A stretch of 64,000 nucleotides of DNA, from positions 32,001 through 96,000 of the forward strand of contig DASCPX010000027.1 of NCBI GenBank assembly GCA_036012755.1, written 5' to 3'. Source of the DNA: Myxococcota bacterium (lineage in GTDB: Bacteria; Myxococcota_A; UBA796; CAJQPC01). The first letter of the stretch is position 1. Each line of letters opens with the position of its first letter. This document shows, in pieces, positions 57,393-64,000 of the stretch. A program made the translations under genes and the position numbers. The notes below the pieces were generated by a model, which was not told the origin of the DNA, ran no database searches, and was given only the letters and a program-made list of their open reading frames with translations.

Positions 57393-57602
57393 TCAGCGGC
57401 GGCGACGCATCCGCACGAACTGGGTGTCCTTCTCCGAGTCGCGGTCGGCCTGGCGTGGGGGCGCGGGGATCCGGCGAAGCTCGACGGACTGCGGCGCGTC
57501 GATGCAGAGTCGCACCCAGTTGCCCTTGATGCGCTTGATGTAGATGCGAACGTCGTCTCCGACCTGCAGGATCTCGCCTTCTTTCTGTGTGAGAACGAGC
57601 AT
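57393..57602 (-). CDS. csrA: CsrA/RsmA-like carbon storage regulator (divergent)
   Basis: MLVLTQKEGE.L.VGDDV......KGNWVRL.IDAP.SV..RR; GGGAGA RBS. Confidence 0.75.
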   Translation of the reverse strand: MLVLTQKEGEILQVGDDVRIYIKRIKGNWVRLCIDAPQSVELRRIPAPPRQADRDSEKDTQFVRMRRRR

Positions 57603-57700
57603 TCGGATCTCCCTGTTCGCAGGCTGGGCCAACTGCACATTACATCGGAATATGGGGTAGCCCGCATTAGACAGTCAAAATTCTCCAAGCTGGAGAGGGT

Positions 57701-58687: not shown

Positions 58688-59052
58688 GGACTTGCTGGAG
58701 TTCCGGGCCTGGGCTCGAGGCTTTGCTCCAGGTGCAGCTGGAGACCCTCGATGTCGGCTGAGTTGACGGCGAGGGGCTCGGGCCAGATGGTCTGGGCGTC
58801 GGTCTCGCTGACGCCGTCGCGGTCCGGGTCGTGGGCAGCGCGCACGCTCACGGTTCCGATGCGCGCCCTGACCTGCACCTCGAAGGGGCCGTTTCCGCTC
58901 TCTACGACCGCACTGCCGGCGAGCAACGGCGGGCCGGAACTCTCGATGAGCAGCACCTCGACGACGACAGGGCCGACACCGGAGTAGCGCACGTCACCCC
59001 GGATGGACACGGTGTCCTGGGCAAGCGCCTGCGCCAACAGCAAGTGCATCAT
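58684..59052 (-). CDS. Hypothetical secreted protein
   Basis: ATGA-coupled to udg; MMHLLLAQALA signal; DPDRDG Ca-binding-like motif. Confidence 0.6.
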   Translation of the reverse strand: MMHLLLAQALAQDTVSIRGDVRYSGVGPVVVEVLLIESSGPPLLAGSAVVESGNGPFEVQVRARIGTVSVRAAHDPDRDGVSETDAQTIWPEPLAVNSADIEGLQLHLEQSLEPRPGTPASP

Positions 59053-59945
59053 CGAAGCCCCCCCAGCTCGTCGTAGCGCGACTTGACGGCCTTGAGGTCG
59101 TCGAAGGTGTAGCGCTTGTCCTGGGGCTGTCTCAGCAGGTAGGCGGGATGGAATGTCGGCATCACGGGCACGTTTCGCCAGAGGTGCCAGCTGCCTCGCA
59201 TGGTGGTGATGCCGCGGTTCGTCTTCAGGAGCGTCTTCACCGCTGGACTCCCGAGAGTCAGGATCACCTTCGGTCCGATGGCCTCGAGCTGCTTCTCGAG
59301 GAAGGGCAAGCAGGATGCTATCTCGTCGGGCTGCGGGCTCCGGTTCTTCGGCGGACGGCACTTGACGACGTTGAGGATGTAGACCTTGGCCCGTGAGAGG
59401 CCCAGCACGCGCTCGAGCATCTTGTCGAGCATCTCCCCTGCCGCTCCGACGAAGGGCAGGCCGAGGCGGTCCTCGTTGGCGCCGGGACCCTCGCCGAGCA
59501 CCACGAGGTCCGCGTTCGGATGTCCCATGCCGAAGGCCACCTTCTGTCGCTGCTCGCAGAGGCGACAGCGGGCGCACTCCCCGAGCTCCGCGCGGATGGC
59601 GACGAGTCTCTCCGCAGCCGCCCGTGCGGCCGAGCCCTCCGGGAGCGGGGGCAGGTCGTCCTGGCTGAAACCCCAAGCGCCGACAGCATGATCGAGCCCG
59701 TAGACCGGCGGTCTCTCTTCGAGCTGGTCGTCCCACGACTCCTTGGGCGGGGCCTGGCGCTCCGGCTCGGTCGCCCCGGTCGGCGGGGCCTGGCGCTCCG
59801 GCTCGGTCGCCCCGGTCGGCGGGGCCTGGCGCTTCGGCTCCTGGCTGGAGGCCGTCCGATGTGTCGCGCCCATCGCCCTGTCCGCACGGAGCCTCTCGTG
59901 AACGTCCGCCACGAGGTCCGCAAGTTCCTGGCGTGGGTCACTCAT
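59049..59945 (-). CDS. Uracil-DNA glycosylase family 4 (Fe-S)
   Basis: CARCRLC, GEGPGANED..G.PFVG.AG, NVVKCRPP.NR.P, TFHPAYLLR. Confidence 0.93.
   Translation of the reverse strand: MSDPRQELADLVADVHERLRADRAMGATHRTASSQEPKRQAPPTGATEPERQAPPTGATEPERQAPPKESWDDQLEERPPVYGLDHAVGAWGFSQDDLPPLPEGSAARAAAERLVAIRAELGECARCRLCEQRQKVAFGMGHPNADLVVLGEGPGANEDRLGLPFVGAAGEMLDKMLERVLGLSRAKVYILNVVKCRPPKNRSPQPDEIASCLPFLEKQLEAIGPKVILTLGSPAVKTLLKTNRGITTMRGSWHLWRNVPVMPTFHPAYLLRQPQDKRYTFDDLKAVKSRYDELGGLR
59746..59840. repeat. 36-bp tandem repeat (about 2.6 copies) encoding (E/K)RQAPPTGATEP in the UDG linker
   Basis: Units start at 59746, 59782 and 59818. Confidence 0.92.
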
Positions 59946-60513
59946 CAGGGAGTCTCCAGCCGAGCGCGCGAAGCTCGGAGATCACTCGCAGCACCGGCAG
60001 GCCGACGACGTTGAACCAGCTGCCATCGATCGACTCGCAGAGCCACGCCCCTCGTCCTTCGATCTCGTAGCCCCCCGCGCAAGCGCGTCCCTCGCCGCTG
60101 GCGACGTAGGAGGCGAGCTCCTCGTCGCTGAGATCGCCCCGAAAGCGGAGACGGGTGGTCTCGTGAAAGACACGCTCGACCCCCTCCCCCACCAGCGCCA
60201 CTCCGGTCACCAGGTCGTGGGTCCGTCCAGCGAGCTCGCCGAGCGTCGCGCGGTGCTCCGCGGCGTCCCGGGGTTTGTGGAAGATGCGTCCGTCGAGGTG
60301 GACCACGCAGTCGGCGCCGAGGACGAGGGCGCCCGGACGTTGCTCTGCCACGGAGCGAGCCTTCCAGAGGGCCAGCGTCTCCGCGAGCTCGACCGGCTCT
60401 GTGACCCCGCATGCGCGCTCGTCGACGCTAGGCGCGACGCCTTCGCTGGGCACTCCGGCGCGCTCCAACAGAGCCCGTCTCCAGGGGCTCGTGGACGCGA
60501 GGACAAGCGGCAT
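59938..60513 (-). CDS. maf: Maf family nucleotide pyrophosphatase
   Basis: LVLASTSPWR, KARSV, VLGAD, KP, AGGY.IEG.G, G..FNVVGLP. Confidence 0.9.
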   Translation of the reverse strand: MPLVLASTSPWRRALLERAGVPSEGVAPSVDERACGVTEPVELAETLALWKARSVAEQRPGALVLGADCVVHLDGRIFHKPRDAAEHRATLGELAGRTHDLVTGVALVGEGVERVFHETTRLRFRGDLSDEELASYVASGEGRACAGGYEIEGRGAWLCESIDGSWFNVVGLPVLRVISELRALGWRLPDE

Positions 60514-60630: not shown

Positions 60631-62631
60631 ATGAGTTCAAGCCGCGCCGTCGGCATCGACCTGGGGACTACCTTTTCGGCGATCGCGCACGTGAACCGAC
60701 ACGGCGTCCCCGAGATCCTTCACAACGCCGAAGGTGATCGCATCACCCCCTCGGTCGTCCTGTTCGATGGCGACGAAGTCATTGTCGGCAACTACGCCAA
60801 ACAGAGCGCGGTCGTGTACCCGGAGCAGGTGGTCGAGTTCATCAAGCGCCACATCGGGGATGCCGACTTCTACTTCGAGTATCGCAACGAGAACTACTCG
60901 CCCGAGCGCATCTCCAGCTTCATCCTCGCGAAGCTCAAGCACGACGCAGAGCTGCGCCTCGGCCACCGCATCGACCAGGCCGTGGTCACGGTCCCGGCCT
61001 ACTTCAACGACCACCAGCGTCAGGCGACCCTGAAGGCGGGTGAGCTCGCTGGCTTGCGGGTGCTGAAGCTCATCAACGAGCCCACCGCCGCGGCCTTCGC
61101 CTACGGCCTGAACAACGCCGACAGCAACAAGCGTGTCCTGGTCTTCGACCTCGGCGGCGGTACCTTCGACGTCACGATCTGCCAGATCGACGGCCGTGAC
61201 ATCAACGTCAACGCGACCAACGGCGACCACCAGCTCGGCGGGAAGGACTGGGACGACGCGCTCATCCGCTATGCCGCGGAGTGCTTCGAGGAGAAGCACG
61301 GCATGGATCCGCTAGAGGACCTCGCCGCCTACCACGACCTCCGCCAGAAGTGCGTCTCGGCGAAGATCAGCCTCACCCGCCGCCCCAAGGTCAACCTCTT
61401 CTACGACTACAAGGGCAAGATCATGCGGCTGGAGGTCACGCGCTCGAAGTTCGAGGACCTCACCAGCGGCCTGATGCGACGGGCGGAGCTCCTGACCGAC
61501 GACGTCCTGCTCGACGCCAGCTTGGACCGAAACGCCATCGACACCGTGCTCCTCGCCGGCGGCTCGACCCGCATGCCCATGGTCCGGGCGATGTTGAAGA
61601 AGATGTTCGCCCGGGCACCGGCGACGGACATCAACCCCGATGAGTGCGTCGCCCTCGGGGCCGCGCTCACGGCAGCGCTCGAGGCGGCGAGGCTCTCTGG
61701 AGAGAAGCCCGACATCGACATCCGCACGCACGATGTCACCTCCCACAGCCTGGGCATGGTCGTCTTCCGGGAGAGCCAGCTCCACAACTCCCGCATCATC
61801 TCGAAGAACACTCGAATCCCCTGCGAGCAGACCAGGGACAACTACGTCACGACCCACGATGGGCAGACGACGATGGACCTTTGGCTGGTCCAGGGAGAGA
61901 ACGAGGATCCGCTGGAGTGCAACGTCCTCGGTCACTTCGAGTTCTACGGCATCCCACCACGCCCGGCCGGCGAGTCTCGTCTCGCGGTCACCTACCGCTA
62001 CAACGCCAACGGCATCGTGGAGGTGGAGGCGATGGACCTTCGGAGCGGACAGACCCTGGCGCACCGCCTCGCGGCTGGCCACATCACCCTCGAGGATCTG
62101 GCCCGGAACCGGATCCCGATGCAGATGGCGCTGATCATGGACTGCTCCGGCTCCATGTACGGCCAGTCGATCGACGACGCCAAGACGGCAGCCAGGTCAT
62201 TCGTGGAGCGCAGCCTCCAGCCGGGTCGTCAGCTCGCGATCGTCGCCTTCCCCGGTGGGGTGCTGGCTCCCCCCACCTCCGACATCCGTCGGCTCACGGG
62301 CGCCATCGACCAGCTCACGCCGATCGGTTCCACTCCCATGGCGGACGGGCTCCGCCACGGGCGTGACCTCCTCCGCCCACGGGCGGGCGTCCAGCGCGTG
62401 TTCGTGGTCATGACCGACGGTCACCCGGATGACCCGGACGCCGTCAGCGCCGAGATTCACCGCATTCGCAGCACGGGCGGCCGAGTGGTGGCGATCGGCG
62501 TCGGTCCCCAGGTCCGGCAGGAGTTCCTGAAGGGCCTTGCCTCCAGCCCCAACGACTACCACTTCTGCAGTGAGTCGGTTGAGCTCGAGGGGACGTTCAT
62601 CAACCTTGCGACCGAGCTCGGCGCGACCTGA
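60631..62631 (+). CDS. Hsp70 family protein fused to C-terminal VWA domain
   Basis: GIDLGTT, TVPAYF, INEPTAAA, DLGGGTFD, GGSTRMP, NPDECVA, SBD-beta; then DCSGS..GSTPM..MTDG..AIGVG. Confidence 0.92.
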   Translation: MSSSRAVGIDLGTTFSAIAHVNRHGVPEILHNAEGDRITPSVVLFDGDEVIVGNYAKQSAVVYPEQVVEFIKRHIGDADFYFEYRNENYSPERISSFILAKLKHDAELRLGHRIDQAVVTVPAYFNDHQRQATLKAGELAGLRVLKLINEPTAAAFAYGLNNADSNKRVLVFDLGGGTFDVTICQIDGRDINVNATNGDHQLGGKDWDDALIRYAAECFEEKHGMDPLEDLAAYHDLRQKCVSAKISLTRRPKVNLFYDYKGKIMRLEVTRSKFEDLTSGLMRRAELLTDDVLLDASLDRNAIDTVLLAGGSTRMPMVRAMLKKMFARAPATDINPDECVALGAALTAALEAARLSGEKPDIDIRTHDVTSHSLGMVVFRESQLHNSRIISKNTRIPCEQTRDNYVTTHDGQTTMDLWLVQGENEDPLECNVLGHFEFYGIPPRPAGESRLAVTYRYNANGIVEVEAMDLRSGQTLAHRLAAGHITLEDLARNRIPMQMALIMDCSGSMYGQSIDDAKTAARSFVERSLQPGRQLAIVAFPGGVLAPPTSDIRRLTGAIDQLTPIGSTPMADGLRHGRDLLRPRAGVQRVFVVMTDGHPDDPDAVSAEIHRIRSTGGRVVAIGVGPQVRQEFLKGLASSPNDYHFCSESVELEGTFINLATELGAT

Positions 62632-62641
62632 AGGACTGCAC

Positions 62642-63148
62642 ATGAGTACCGAGGCCGAAGTCGAGGCCCTGCGGCAGGAAGTCCGCGAGCTCCGAGAGAT
62701 CCTGACGGCGCGGAACGAGGGCGAGATCACCCAGCAGAAGGCCTTCGACTCGCTGTACGAAGAGCTCCGGCAGTACAAGGACGACTTCATCTTCCAGGCT
62801 GAGAAGCCGCTGCTATTGGACCTGCTGCTCTTCTACGACTCCCTGAACTGGTTCCAGGAGTCCCTGGTCAAGAAGGAGATGTCGATGGACGTCATCTCCG
62901 ACAGCTTCCAGTACTTGATCGACGAGTTCCTCGAGGTCCTCTACCGGCGGGACGTGCTGCCGATGGAGAGCCAGCAGAAGTTCGATCCGAAGAGCCAGAA
63001 GGTCGTGAAGGTCGTTGCCCCCGACGAAGCTGGCAAGGACCAGATCGTCGCCCAGGTCCTCAAGCGCGGCTTCAACCGCGCGGAGCGCGTCCTGCGGTCG
63101 GAAGAGGTCGTCATCTACCGGGACACGGCAAAGACGGGCCGGGACTGA
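62642..63148 (+). CDS. GrpE-like nucleotide exchange factor (divergent)
   Basis: Coiled coil, LLLDLL..DSL, FDPK, VLKRGF...RVLR...V. Confidence 0.8.
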   Translation: MSTEAEVEALRQEVRELREILTARNEGEITQQKAFDSLYEELRQYKDDFIFQAEKPLLLDLLLFYDSLNWFQESLVKKEMSMDVISDSFQYLIDEFLEVLYRRDVLPMESQQKFDPKSQKVVKVVAPDEAGKDQIVAQVLKRGFNRAERVLRSEEVVIYRDTAKTGRD

Positions 63149-63152
63149 CTGG

Positions 63153-64000
63153 ATGGTCGCTGAGGGTCAGATCATCCTGGGCATCGATCTTGGGACGACG
63201 TTCTCGGCGATGGCCTATGTCGATCGCTTCGGCAAGCCGAACATCATCCCCAACGGCGATGGCCACTCCACGACGGCTTCCGTCATCCACTTCTACGACC
63301 GCAACGCCTGCGTCGTCGGAGAGGAGGCGGTGAAGATGGTCGTGGTCGATCCGACCAACGTCGTGCGGTTCATCAAGCGCTCCATGGGCGACACGGACTT
63401 CGTCCTGGACTTCTTCGGCGTCAGCTACACGCCCCAGGAGCTCTCGGCGTTCATCCTCAAGAAGCTGAAGAACGACGCCGAGGAGGCACTCGGAAAGCCA
63501 GTCGATCACTGCGTGATCACGGTGCCGGCCTACTTCAACAGCTCCCAGCGTGGGGCGACCGCCGAAGCTGGGAAGATCGCCGGCTTCAACGTGCTGTCCA
63601 TCATCAACGAGCCGACCGCCGCGGCCATCGCCCTCGGCCTCGCTCACCTCGGAAAGAACCGCCGGATGCTGGTCTTCGACCTCGGCGGTGGCACCTTCGA
63701 CGTGACGGTGATGGAGATCCGAGGGACCACGCTGCGGACGCTGGCCAGCGACGGCAACGCGGAGCTTGGCGGCAAGGACTGGGACGATCGGCTGCTCAGC
63801 CACGTCGCCGAGCAGTTCCGTGACAAGTTCGGACTGGACCCGCGGGACGACCCGCTGCCCTACCAGGAGCTCTACGAGCGCTGTCTCCACGCCAAGATCT
63901 CGTTGTCGACCAAGCCACGAGCCGTGATCCCGGTGAACTTCCGCGGACACCGCATGGTCGTCCAGGTCACCCGGGCCGAGTTCGAGGAGATGTGCAGCGA
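63153..64000 (+). CDS. Second Hsp70 family protein (truncated by window edge)
   Basis: MVAEGQIILGIDLGTTFS, ITVPAYFN, INEPTAAA, DLGGGTFDVT, LGGKDWD; open to the end of the window. Confidence 0.92.
   Translation, partial: MVAEGQIILGIDLGTTFSAMAYVDRFGKPNIIPNGDGHSTTASVIHFYDRNACVVGEEAVKMVVVDPTNVVRFIKRSMGDTDFVLDFFGVSYTPQELSAFILKKLKNDAEEALGKPVDHCVITVPAYFNSSQRGATAEAGKIAGFNVLSIINEPTAAAIALGLAHLGKNRRMLVFDLGGGTFDVTVMEIRGTTLRTLASDGNAELGGKDWDDRLLSHVAEQFRDKFGLDPRDDPLPYQELYERCLHAKISLSTKPRAVIPVNFRGHRMVVQVTRAEFEEMCS

Follow-up and report, generated by a model that had tools for sequence, protein, structure and literature searches.

A conserved Hsp70-VWA operon of an uncultured Myxococcota order and its putative descent from GAP1-N2 conflict systems

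Conflict systems built around GAP1-N2-type double-GTPases (DO-GTPases) were predicted computationally in 2020, and one of their themes combines HSP70 with GrpE (Kaur, Burroughs, Iyer and Aravind, PMC7159879). The available parts of that study report vWA domains in two sister themes and tubulin in a sister theme; a vWA fused to HSP70 is not mentioned in the available main text (section 29 and further passages), and the source data of its Figure 1 may show one. Our literature search, with subscription journals mostly outside its coverage, found no description of an Hsp70-vWA fusion and no experiment on GAP1-N2 systems. Here we describe an operon encoding such a fusion, which begins at the end of a stretch of 64,000 nucleotides (nt), the window (C27:32001-96000, on contig DASCPX010000027.1), from a Myxococcota genome of 6.7 Mb and 96% completeness. 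Its first gene, A (60631..62631, + strand; 666 residues), is an open reading frame for an Hsp70-VWA fusion; B (62642..63148, +; 168 residues from the ATG at 62642) encodes a divergent GrpE-like nucleotide exchange factor; and C (544 residues) is a second, lidless Hsp70 whose 5' part, starting with an ATG at 63153, occupies 63153..64000 (+) and which runs on to C27:96787 (full gene C27:95153-96787). As the sequence-only reading of the window had anticipated, the operon continues with J-like and tetratricopeptide-repeat (TPR) genes. Beyond the window lie D, a J-like membrane protein of 658 residues (C27:96870-98846, 82 nt after C), and E, 278 residues with TPR and a Zincin_1 domain bearing HEVGH (C27:98843-99679, overlapping the stop of D).

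Our preferred account, held tentatively and as somewhat short of probable, is that these genes encode a private Hsp70 switch, tethered to the inner membrane and domesticated from a GAP1-N2 HSP70/GrpE module after loss of the GTPase and GAP1, and that the switch would most likely act constitutively to assemble or monitor a specific complex linked to the envelope. The parent system is a known prediction; new here is the predicted complex in which a loop of D lies across subdomains IB and IIB of the nucleotide-binding domain (NBD) of A. A so far purely genomic prediction thereby takes concrete form: A, B, C and residues 1-148 of D make up four soluble pieces, and an interface is predicted at the level of residues.

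Pfam assigns residues 6-475 of A to HSP70 (E 1e-138) and 500-646 to VWA (E 5.9e-16, above the cut-off). In an AlphaFold model of residues 362-666 (predicted local distance difference test, pLDDT, 87.9), the sandwich of the beta part of the substrate-binding domain (SBD-beta) is followed by one 5-residue helix at the point where a lid would start and then by the VWA, whose first strand begins at residue 497, that is nt 62119. Foldseek matches the VWA to CMG2/ANTXR2 (root-mean-square deviation, rmsd, 2.0 A over 160 columns) and the remaining part to DnaK SBD-beta. The VWA domain (62119..62628, +) carries a metal-ion-dependent adhesion site (MIDAS) formed by D504-x-S-x-S (nt 62140), T568 (62332) and D596 (62416); D504, S506, S508, T568 and D596 are each present in 74/74 complete close homologues, and among 12 more divergent members the T position holds T in 3, S in 8 and G in 1. 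A VWA with an intact MIDAS in place of the lid, recognized earlier from the letters alone, is thus confirmed by profile, model and alignment. The HSP70+VWA architecture recurs in all of the best 120 of 323 homologues, on which ground an assembly chimera was rejected.

Residues of A (74 rows) and C (66 rows) were compared in E. coli DnaK numbering. The equivalents of catalytic D8, T11, K70, E171, D194 and T199 are invariant in both proteins (74/74 and 66/66), and the N13 equivalent is F or Y in both. Neither protein has the ~22-residue subdomain-IB insertion carried by this genome's other DnaK-like proteins, measured in seven of the eight DnaK-like controls, the eighth having been parsed wrongly. 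The full ATPase domain and SBD-beta first attributed to A therefore hold as regards the catalytic set and the SBD-beta, and fall short in the missing IB insertion. The interdomain linker of A reads D-I-R-T-H-D and not the hydrophobic DVLLLD of canonical DnaK, with I364-R-T-H-D368 (61720..61734, +; R in 66/74, T in 69/74, H in 71/74) replacing V389-L-L-L-D393. Further replacements are K155->L/I/M, R167->K/S/A, Q378->T, at a position which we take to have a role in J-domain contact or stimulation, and R261->D, at a site where this and neighbouring positions presumably contact GrpE in DnaK. The latter change, to D in A and to E in C, would agree with the presence of a GrpE dedicated to the system. 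In the available portions of PMC4595643 and PMC13580251, allostery and J stimulation are associated with the linker, K155 and R167. Part of the allosteric network is retained in A (D148, R151, D393, N415, Q442, L454), and its SBD-beta pocket is conserved in altered form (V436->M/I, M404->Y/F, A429->T). A lies below the NCBIfam equivalog cut-offs for DnaK and HscA (451.9 vs 648 and 444.9 vs 822.55), and C lower still. With linker, lid and J-contact residues lost, A and C are unlikely to act as general stress chaperones, and the suggested role in general stress response becomes correspondingly doubtful.

Gene B matches Pfam GrpE (E 2.1e-14). C, assigned to Pfam HSP70, has no full lid, its C-terminus lying shortly past the first lid helix, and carries a variable insert between NBD and SBD-beta, after which the linker reads V-x-I-x-D. 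It has lost more than A, with D148->S, D326->K, K414->E, N415->G/F and Q442->E. C and its distant lidless counterparts (L001:6720-6784, L140, L141, L147, L148) end in a short hydrophobic tail soon after the first lid helix, which might fill a substrate pocket. The absence of lids and of much of the substrate-to-ATPase allostery in both proteins would suit a polymer or scaffold of A and C under nucleotide control, for which D would provide the nucleus at the membrane and the VWA the cross-links, with no remodelling of clients. Its role would be cytoskeleton-like, comparable to that of tubulin in the sister theme. Multimeric assemblies have been suggested for the tubulin and HSP70 components of GAP1-N2 systems (Kaur et al., PMC7159879, in its available parts), and vWA would be common to all three GAP1-N2 themes if this fusion is counted. 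Such a scaffold nonetheless seems improbable to us, since a GrpE is retained alongside and A has kept R151, D148, D393, N415, Q442 and L454 as well as a conserved pocket, features that would accommodate coupled binding of peptides.

A was modelled with D(1-148), ATP and Mg, together with 3 controls. The A+D(1-148) complex scored 0.67 against 0.00 for the best of the three controls; the score mark was reached by 116/157 solved complexes and 2/215 mismatched pairs, a calibration that is only rough here, where own alignments were used and ligands were present. Runs share at least 87% of contacts, with partner pLDDT of at least 86. Residues 44-56 and 61-67 of D lie against two patches of A that form the halves of the predicted docking site: residues 64-83 in subdomain IB (60820..60879, +), where the DnaK insertion is missing, and residues 205-238 in subdomain IIB (61243..61344, +; K-D-W-D...D-P-L-E-D). 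These regions correspond to DnaK 62-68, 98-104 and 230-263. The contact residues of D are its most conserved (mean 0.78 vs 0.51; 0/5000 random sets as high), and its QxxQxNPK loop has R44, Q48, Q51, N53, P54 and K55 invariant across 48 rows. The modelled contact pairs are mostly invariant and hence uninformative for covariation. A D-P signature in IIB, scored in a loose window, occurs in 73/74 A proteins, 66/66 C proteins, 31/38 distant fusions (8/10 fusion loci) and 2/10 distant lidless partners. The model supports docking of the invariant loop of D across IB and IIB, away from the J site. The VWA of A is uncontacted in this model, and the earlier proposal that the MIDAS selects clients draws no support from it.

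Ordinary J domains use a linker-centred Hsp70 surface, according to the accessible parts of PMC13580251. The modelled site is not that surface, and likeness to solved J-DnaK complexes is therefore an unlikely cause of the prediction. Lying across IB and IIB, the site modelled for D includes the helix of DnaK 256-263, beside what we take to be GrpE contacts, and in this it resembles those of Hip, BAG, Hsp110 and GrpE; D differs from these factors in using a J-like fold. Nucleotide exchange factors target subdomain IIB of Hsp70 and the Hip site overlaps theirs (PMC4753570, in the excerpts available), so that D may lock or open the nucleotide cleft in competition with B. If the interface is true, it would constitute a second mode of recognition between a J fold and Hsp70, would explain the insulation of paralogous Hsp70 networks from DnaK, and would give a role to HPD-less J-like proteins, which are usually deemed inactive.

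The D protein comprises 1) a J-like module with the QxxQxNPK loop (residues 1-148); 2) a second J-like domain without HPD (166-226), recognized by Pfam as DnaJ (30.2 bits, above the cut-off); 3) a proline-rich linker; 4) a BACON-like domain (E 0.051); 5) one membrane helix (437-455), found in 50/50 D proteins; and 6) an optional periplasmic PEGA-like and AgmX/PglI tail. A fold search with the first module returned several J domains at Z 6.0-6.6 (Ydj1: Z 6.0, rmsd 2.3, 63 aligned), level with unrelated helical bundles and with no match at Z of 8 or more, and the J-fold assignment rests on the motif, on Pfam for the second domain and on these weak structural ties. Pfam found no fibronectin type III (FNIII) match in D. 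The tail matches NF033768 (E 1.7e-7, below the NCBIfam cut-off, 31.3 vs 40) and GltG (E 0.005). Like myxobacterial GltG/GltJ (PglI/AgmX), D joins an adaptor in the cytoplasm to an AgmX/PglI tail in the periplasm through one membrane helix; it differs in that its tail lies below the cut-off, is one of 17 AgmX/PglI-type tails in this genome and is absent from some D proteins. GltG/GltJ are inner-membrane proteins that couple to the outer membrane.

In another reading the operon encodes a conventional foldase, specialized in the manner of HscA for one client: the J-like domains of D would stimulate hydrolysis at the usual J site, and the VWA would do no more than raise the affinity for the client. 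The conserved and altered pocket of A would suit such a protein, and HPD survives in the second loop of 2/50 D proteins (it is absent from this genome's D) and in a soluble paralogue of the D module. Against this, positions on which canonical J domains rely (the linker leucines, R167 and Q378) have changed, HPD occurs in the first loop of 0/50 D proteins, and the model puts the module elsewhere, so that we consider a foldase of this kind quite improbable. Compared with DnaK-DnaJ-GrpE and HscA-HscB, the operon shares an NBD with all catalytic residues, an SBD-beta and a GrpE-family partner, and it differs in the missing lid of A, the IRTHD linker, the scores below the cut-offs, and a J partner without HPD modelled at another site.

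Under the private-switch account, A and C would bind and hydrolyse ATP with no DnaK-like refolding of clients. The N-terminal module of D is predicted to grip the NBD of A across IB and IIB by its invariant loop, tethering A to the membrane, and probably keeps A in one nucleotide state, more in the manner of Hip or of an exchange factor than of a J protein. The docking site would be free only in Hsp70s that lack the IB insertion, which would insulate the system from housekeeping DnaK, and B would reset the nucleotide, as its GrpE homology suggests. The VWA in the place of the lid may use Mg2+ to bind a specific partner at an acidic residue, with the ATP state gating capture or assembly. More speculatively, the optional periplasmic TonB-C-like tail of D could connect the switch with proteins of the outer membrane, the same hub might serve further proteins that bear the module, and E may trim or release a component.

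The ancestry of the operon is suggested by distant relatives of A. A profile search of 1.84 billion representatives returned, among its best 150 matches, 42 proteins (657-797 residues) that match SBD-beta and VWA together, with DxSxS in 41. Among Atlas clusters, the HSP70+VWA combination is most frequent in Planctomycetota, Bacillota, Actinomycetota and Myxococcota. We examined 14 of 80 metagenome loci, namely those with matches beyond the VWA alone, one short locus being skipped. Their usual gene order is GrpE, lidless Hsp70, Hsp70-VWA, a protein of ~1000 residues with J-like, zinc-ribbon and FNIII domains, a zinc-ribbon GTPase, and GAP1. Pfam scans of 31 proteins from these loci identified a DO-GTPase in 7/14 loci, mostly near or below the cut-off, and GAP1-N2 in 2. 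Residues 20-139 of D align with the N-terminus of the ~1000-residue protein (hhalign 90.8%, E 1.2e-6), a homology also seen by hmmsearch (best 16.3 bits vs 11.5 for the best of 550 shuffles). Several FNIII proteins of mobile GAP1-N2 systems carry NHP or NNP in the loop equivalent to QxxQxNPK. In a quick tree, a branch with support 99 sets A, C and the distant Hsp70s apart from 8 DnaK/HscA rows, a split that may partly reflect sampling, as the outgroup was without Gram-positive-type DnaK; branches inside the order are short. Hsp70-like domains of CoCoNuT systems were considered and set aside as a different, degenerate family (PMC10542128, as far as its available text goes). In one genome outside the order (G202; L141:5205-12751, L229:2887-9606), which has both DO-GTPase and GAP1-N2, the GrpE-Hsp70-Hsp70/VWA triad adjoins an AAA_21/DUF3696 ATPase gene and lies ~20 kb from the J-like/GTPase/GAP1 half. 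A GAP1-N2 Hsp70 system can thus split into two modules.

With the GAP1-N2 HSP70 theme the operon has in common a pair of non-canonical Hsp70s, a GrpE of its own and a J-like protein with a homologous N-terminal module, and it is in exactly those operons that the distant Hsp70-VWA fusions sit. There are differences too. Neither PF19993 (DO-GTPase2) nor PF20013 (GAP1-N2) was found in this 96%-complete genome, to which the GAP1-N2 search was confined, and our own DO-GTPase profile matched 1/121 genomes of the order, at an unlinked position, and 2/2 fusion carriers outside it. A TPR-zincin has been added here; the FNIII repeats and zinc ribbons found there give way in D to a second J-like domain, BACON, a transmembrane helix and a periplasmic tail; and the theme is mobile there, whereas here it is vertical, single-copy and slowly evolving. 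The best reading of these sequences is that the operon descends from the GAP1-N2 HSP70/GrpE theme and now stands outside it, having no DO-GTPase or GAP1 and being neither mobile nor patchy, as a domesticated, GTPase-free derivative. It would fill in the vWA that the HSP70 theme lacked, and it is a candidate example, from an uncultured order of myxobacteria, of a conflict system that domestication has given a core function.

Inheritance was assessed in one sample of 121 genomes of this uncultured Myxococcota order; these are related and do not count as independent. A is present in 116/121 (59/61 high-quality genomes) and single-copy in 115; C occurs in 101/121 and the D module in 97/121. A broader profile recovered full-length Hsp70-VWA fusions in 42/43 genomes of the order and 2/257 others, and in the phylum outside the order a close A query found nothing in 173 genomes (0/173), as did the D module profile. 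The tree of A needs 7 changes of family label, against a minimum of 6 and a shuffled mean of 22.8. Compared with the copies in the window, the NBD of A has a median identity of 72.5%, the VWA one of 67% and Maf one of 50%. Gene order was counted over 80 related loci, each ratio taking only loci with enough flanking DNA: maf lies directly upstream of A in 67/67, B follows A directly in 75/76, and C is present in 61/61, D in 52/56 and E in 42/51. On these comparisons A has the pattern of a vertically inherited core gene, being near-universal in single copy at a fixed maf address with a family-congruent tree. The family of E is wider, occurring in 26/131 genomes outside the order, and E may be a recruit to the operon. 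One genome of the order holds a second, more divergent copy of A on a short contig (G038:C68, L143).

The module of D occurs outside the operon as well. We examined 16 further loci that bear it, all retaining some version of the loop: nine methyltransferase fusions (confirmed by Pfam in 4/4 scanned), three soluble proteins with helical and J parts, one second D-like membrane protein and three short forms. The methyltransferase fusions (L234-L241, L245) are class I S-adenosylmethionine methyltransferase-like proteins from nine genomes of family f2, and the second half of their module weakly matches TerB in 2/4 scanned. This genome's soluble paralogue (C47:124634-125827, within C47:119894-125827, L228) has HPD in its C-terminal J-like part and lies directly downstream of imuB-dnaE2, a linkage repeated in one congener (L230); in L231, dnaE2 is ~4 kb away. 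Fused to methyltransferases and soluble J proteins, the module looks like a portable docking tag. Among Atlas structure neighbours in other phyla, a similar module is joined to FGE-sulfatase, Lcl_C or zinc ribbons; these are leads only. A bolder generalization, which we regard as possible and rather unlikely, is that the J fold now serves as a movable address label, gripping IB and IIB of Hsp70s that have no insertion and not stimulating hydrolysis through HPD. Such a label would connect a private Hsp70-VWA switch with methyltransferases, with soluble J proteins and with a sensor in the membrane, would thereby have turned an ancestral immune module into core machinery of a whole order, and would predict the same docking in mobile GAP1-N2 systems.

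Descent from GAP1-N2 systems (PMC7159879) also raises the prospect that the operon is still an immune or conflict system, in which D senses an invader (phage, predator or competitor) at the envelope, the Hsp70 sets a threshold and the effector is either E or an enzyme tagged with the module, the whole being retained vertically. D is the most variable part of the operon, its outer parts varying fastest (median identity 29-41% vs 67-72% for A); fusion of its module to different cargoes resembles an effector-associated domain; and in this genome, as in one congener, imuB-dnaE2 is immediately followed by the soluble paralogue. A single copy at a fixed address, near-universal in the order with a tree that follows families, speaks for the domesticated switch instead. 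PADLOC gave no match for A-D (a weak, irrelevant PrimPol match fell on the TPR of E), 0/314 matched records of a plasmid collection cover 80% of the distant fusion query, the parent GTPase/GAP1 switch was not found, and no toxic effector domain was recognised. We therefore judge a present immune function unlikely, if still a serious competitor. The role in biological conflict raised by the sequence-only reading accordingly fits the ancestry of the operon and not its present distribution.

Several observations weigh against the domesticated, membrane-tethered switch. The predicted contact residues of A are no more conserved than its whole NBD (0.80 vs 0.79), and C keeps the same patch, so that the true partner of D may be C or both. 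The envelope role would rest on one optional tail: 9/50 D proteins stop within 14 residues past the membrane helix. Some small genomes show signs of decay: in seven genomes of three f5 genera (59-93% complete) A is kept and neither C nor the D module was found, and two of these have no C-D-E at the locus itself, the gene after B being the usual gene after E. This is probably a single deletion event, and D is evidently not always needed where A is kept. Vertical retention, finally, would be compatible with immunity.

The source genome has ~10 Hsp70 genes, including dnaK-dnaJ on C47, grpE-dnaK-dnaJ on C127, and hscA. With canonical loci on other contigs, the reading of this operon as the sole DnaK locus was rejected, and with the conserved linkage of B and C the earlier description of a dedicated two-Hsp70 module with its own GrpE, distinct from housekeeping dnaK, is upheld. 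Three ways in which that description could have failed, namely no VWA match, a chimeric fusion or the genome's only DnaK locus, were checked, and none holds. Four further non-canonical Hsp70 paralogues lie at C27:165386-167986, C27:116715-118529, C127:82315-84555 and C160:96424-97986; one, judged by eye, combines a long, acidic linker with a C-terminus resembling PilZ, and two are lidless. On C47:2458-8167 (L246), canonical dnaK-dnaJ has groEL upstream in divergent orientation and, behind it, co-directional genes for MoxR and DUF58/VWA, which makes a second, separate juxtaposition of Hsp70 and vWA. The intact MIDAS of A and this MoxR gene behind dnaK-dnaJ could suggest that the VWA is an adaptor for the MoxR AAA+ ATPase, passing on Hsp70-bound clients, an analogy drawn when the window was first read. 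That MoxR has its own adjacent DUF58/VWA partner, unlike a MoxR-vWA chaperone pair the operon has no linked MoxR, and none was recognised among the inspected operon and distant-locus genes; the adaptor is thus highly improbable.

The three genes of the window are co-directional, with gaps of 10 nt (A-B) and 4 nt (B-C), as originally noted. The maf-like gene immediately upstream of A (59938..60510, - strand) is outside the system and marks its fixed chromosomal address. A TTGAC motif is enriched only upstream of D (22/50 loci vs a shuffled mean of 2.0 and maximum of 6), which suggests that D-E carries its own promoter; the candidate internal promoter lies within the C-D gap, at C27:96800-96869. 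A sigma-70 consensus scan of the operon returned 0 promoters, terminators were no more frequent than chance, and a hairpin covering the ribosome site of D showed no conservation. A look-up of sequencing runs listed no RNA holder, which counts in neither direction. A small CsrA-family gene (57393-57638, -; Pfam) lies between an S1-domain gene and a queA-tgt-yajC-secD-secF-ihf-phoH run, neighbours that were named by eye. At 59049-59945 (-) lies a uracil-DNA glycosylase-like gene, whose N-terminal extension holds a short tandem repeat.

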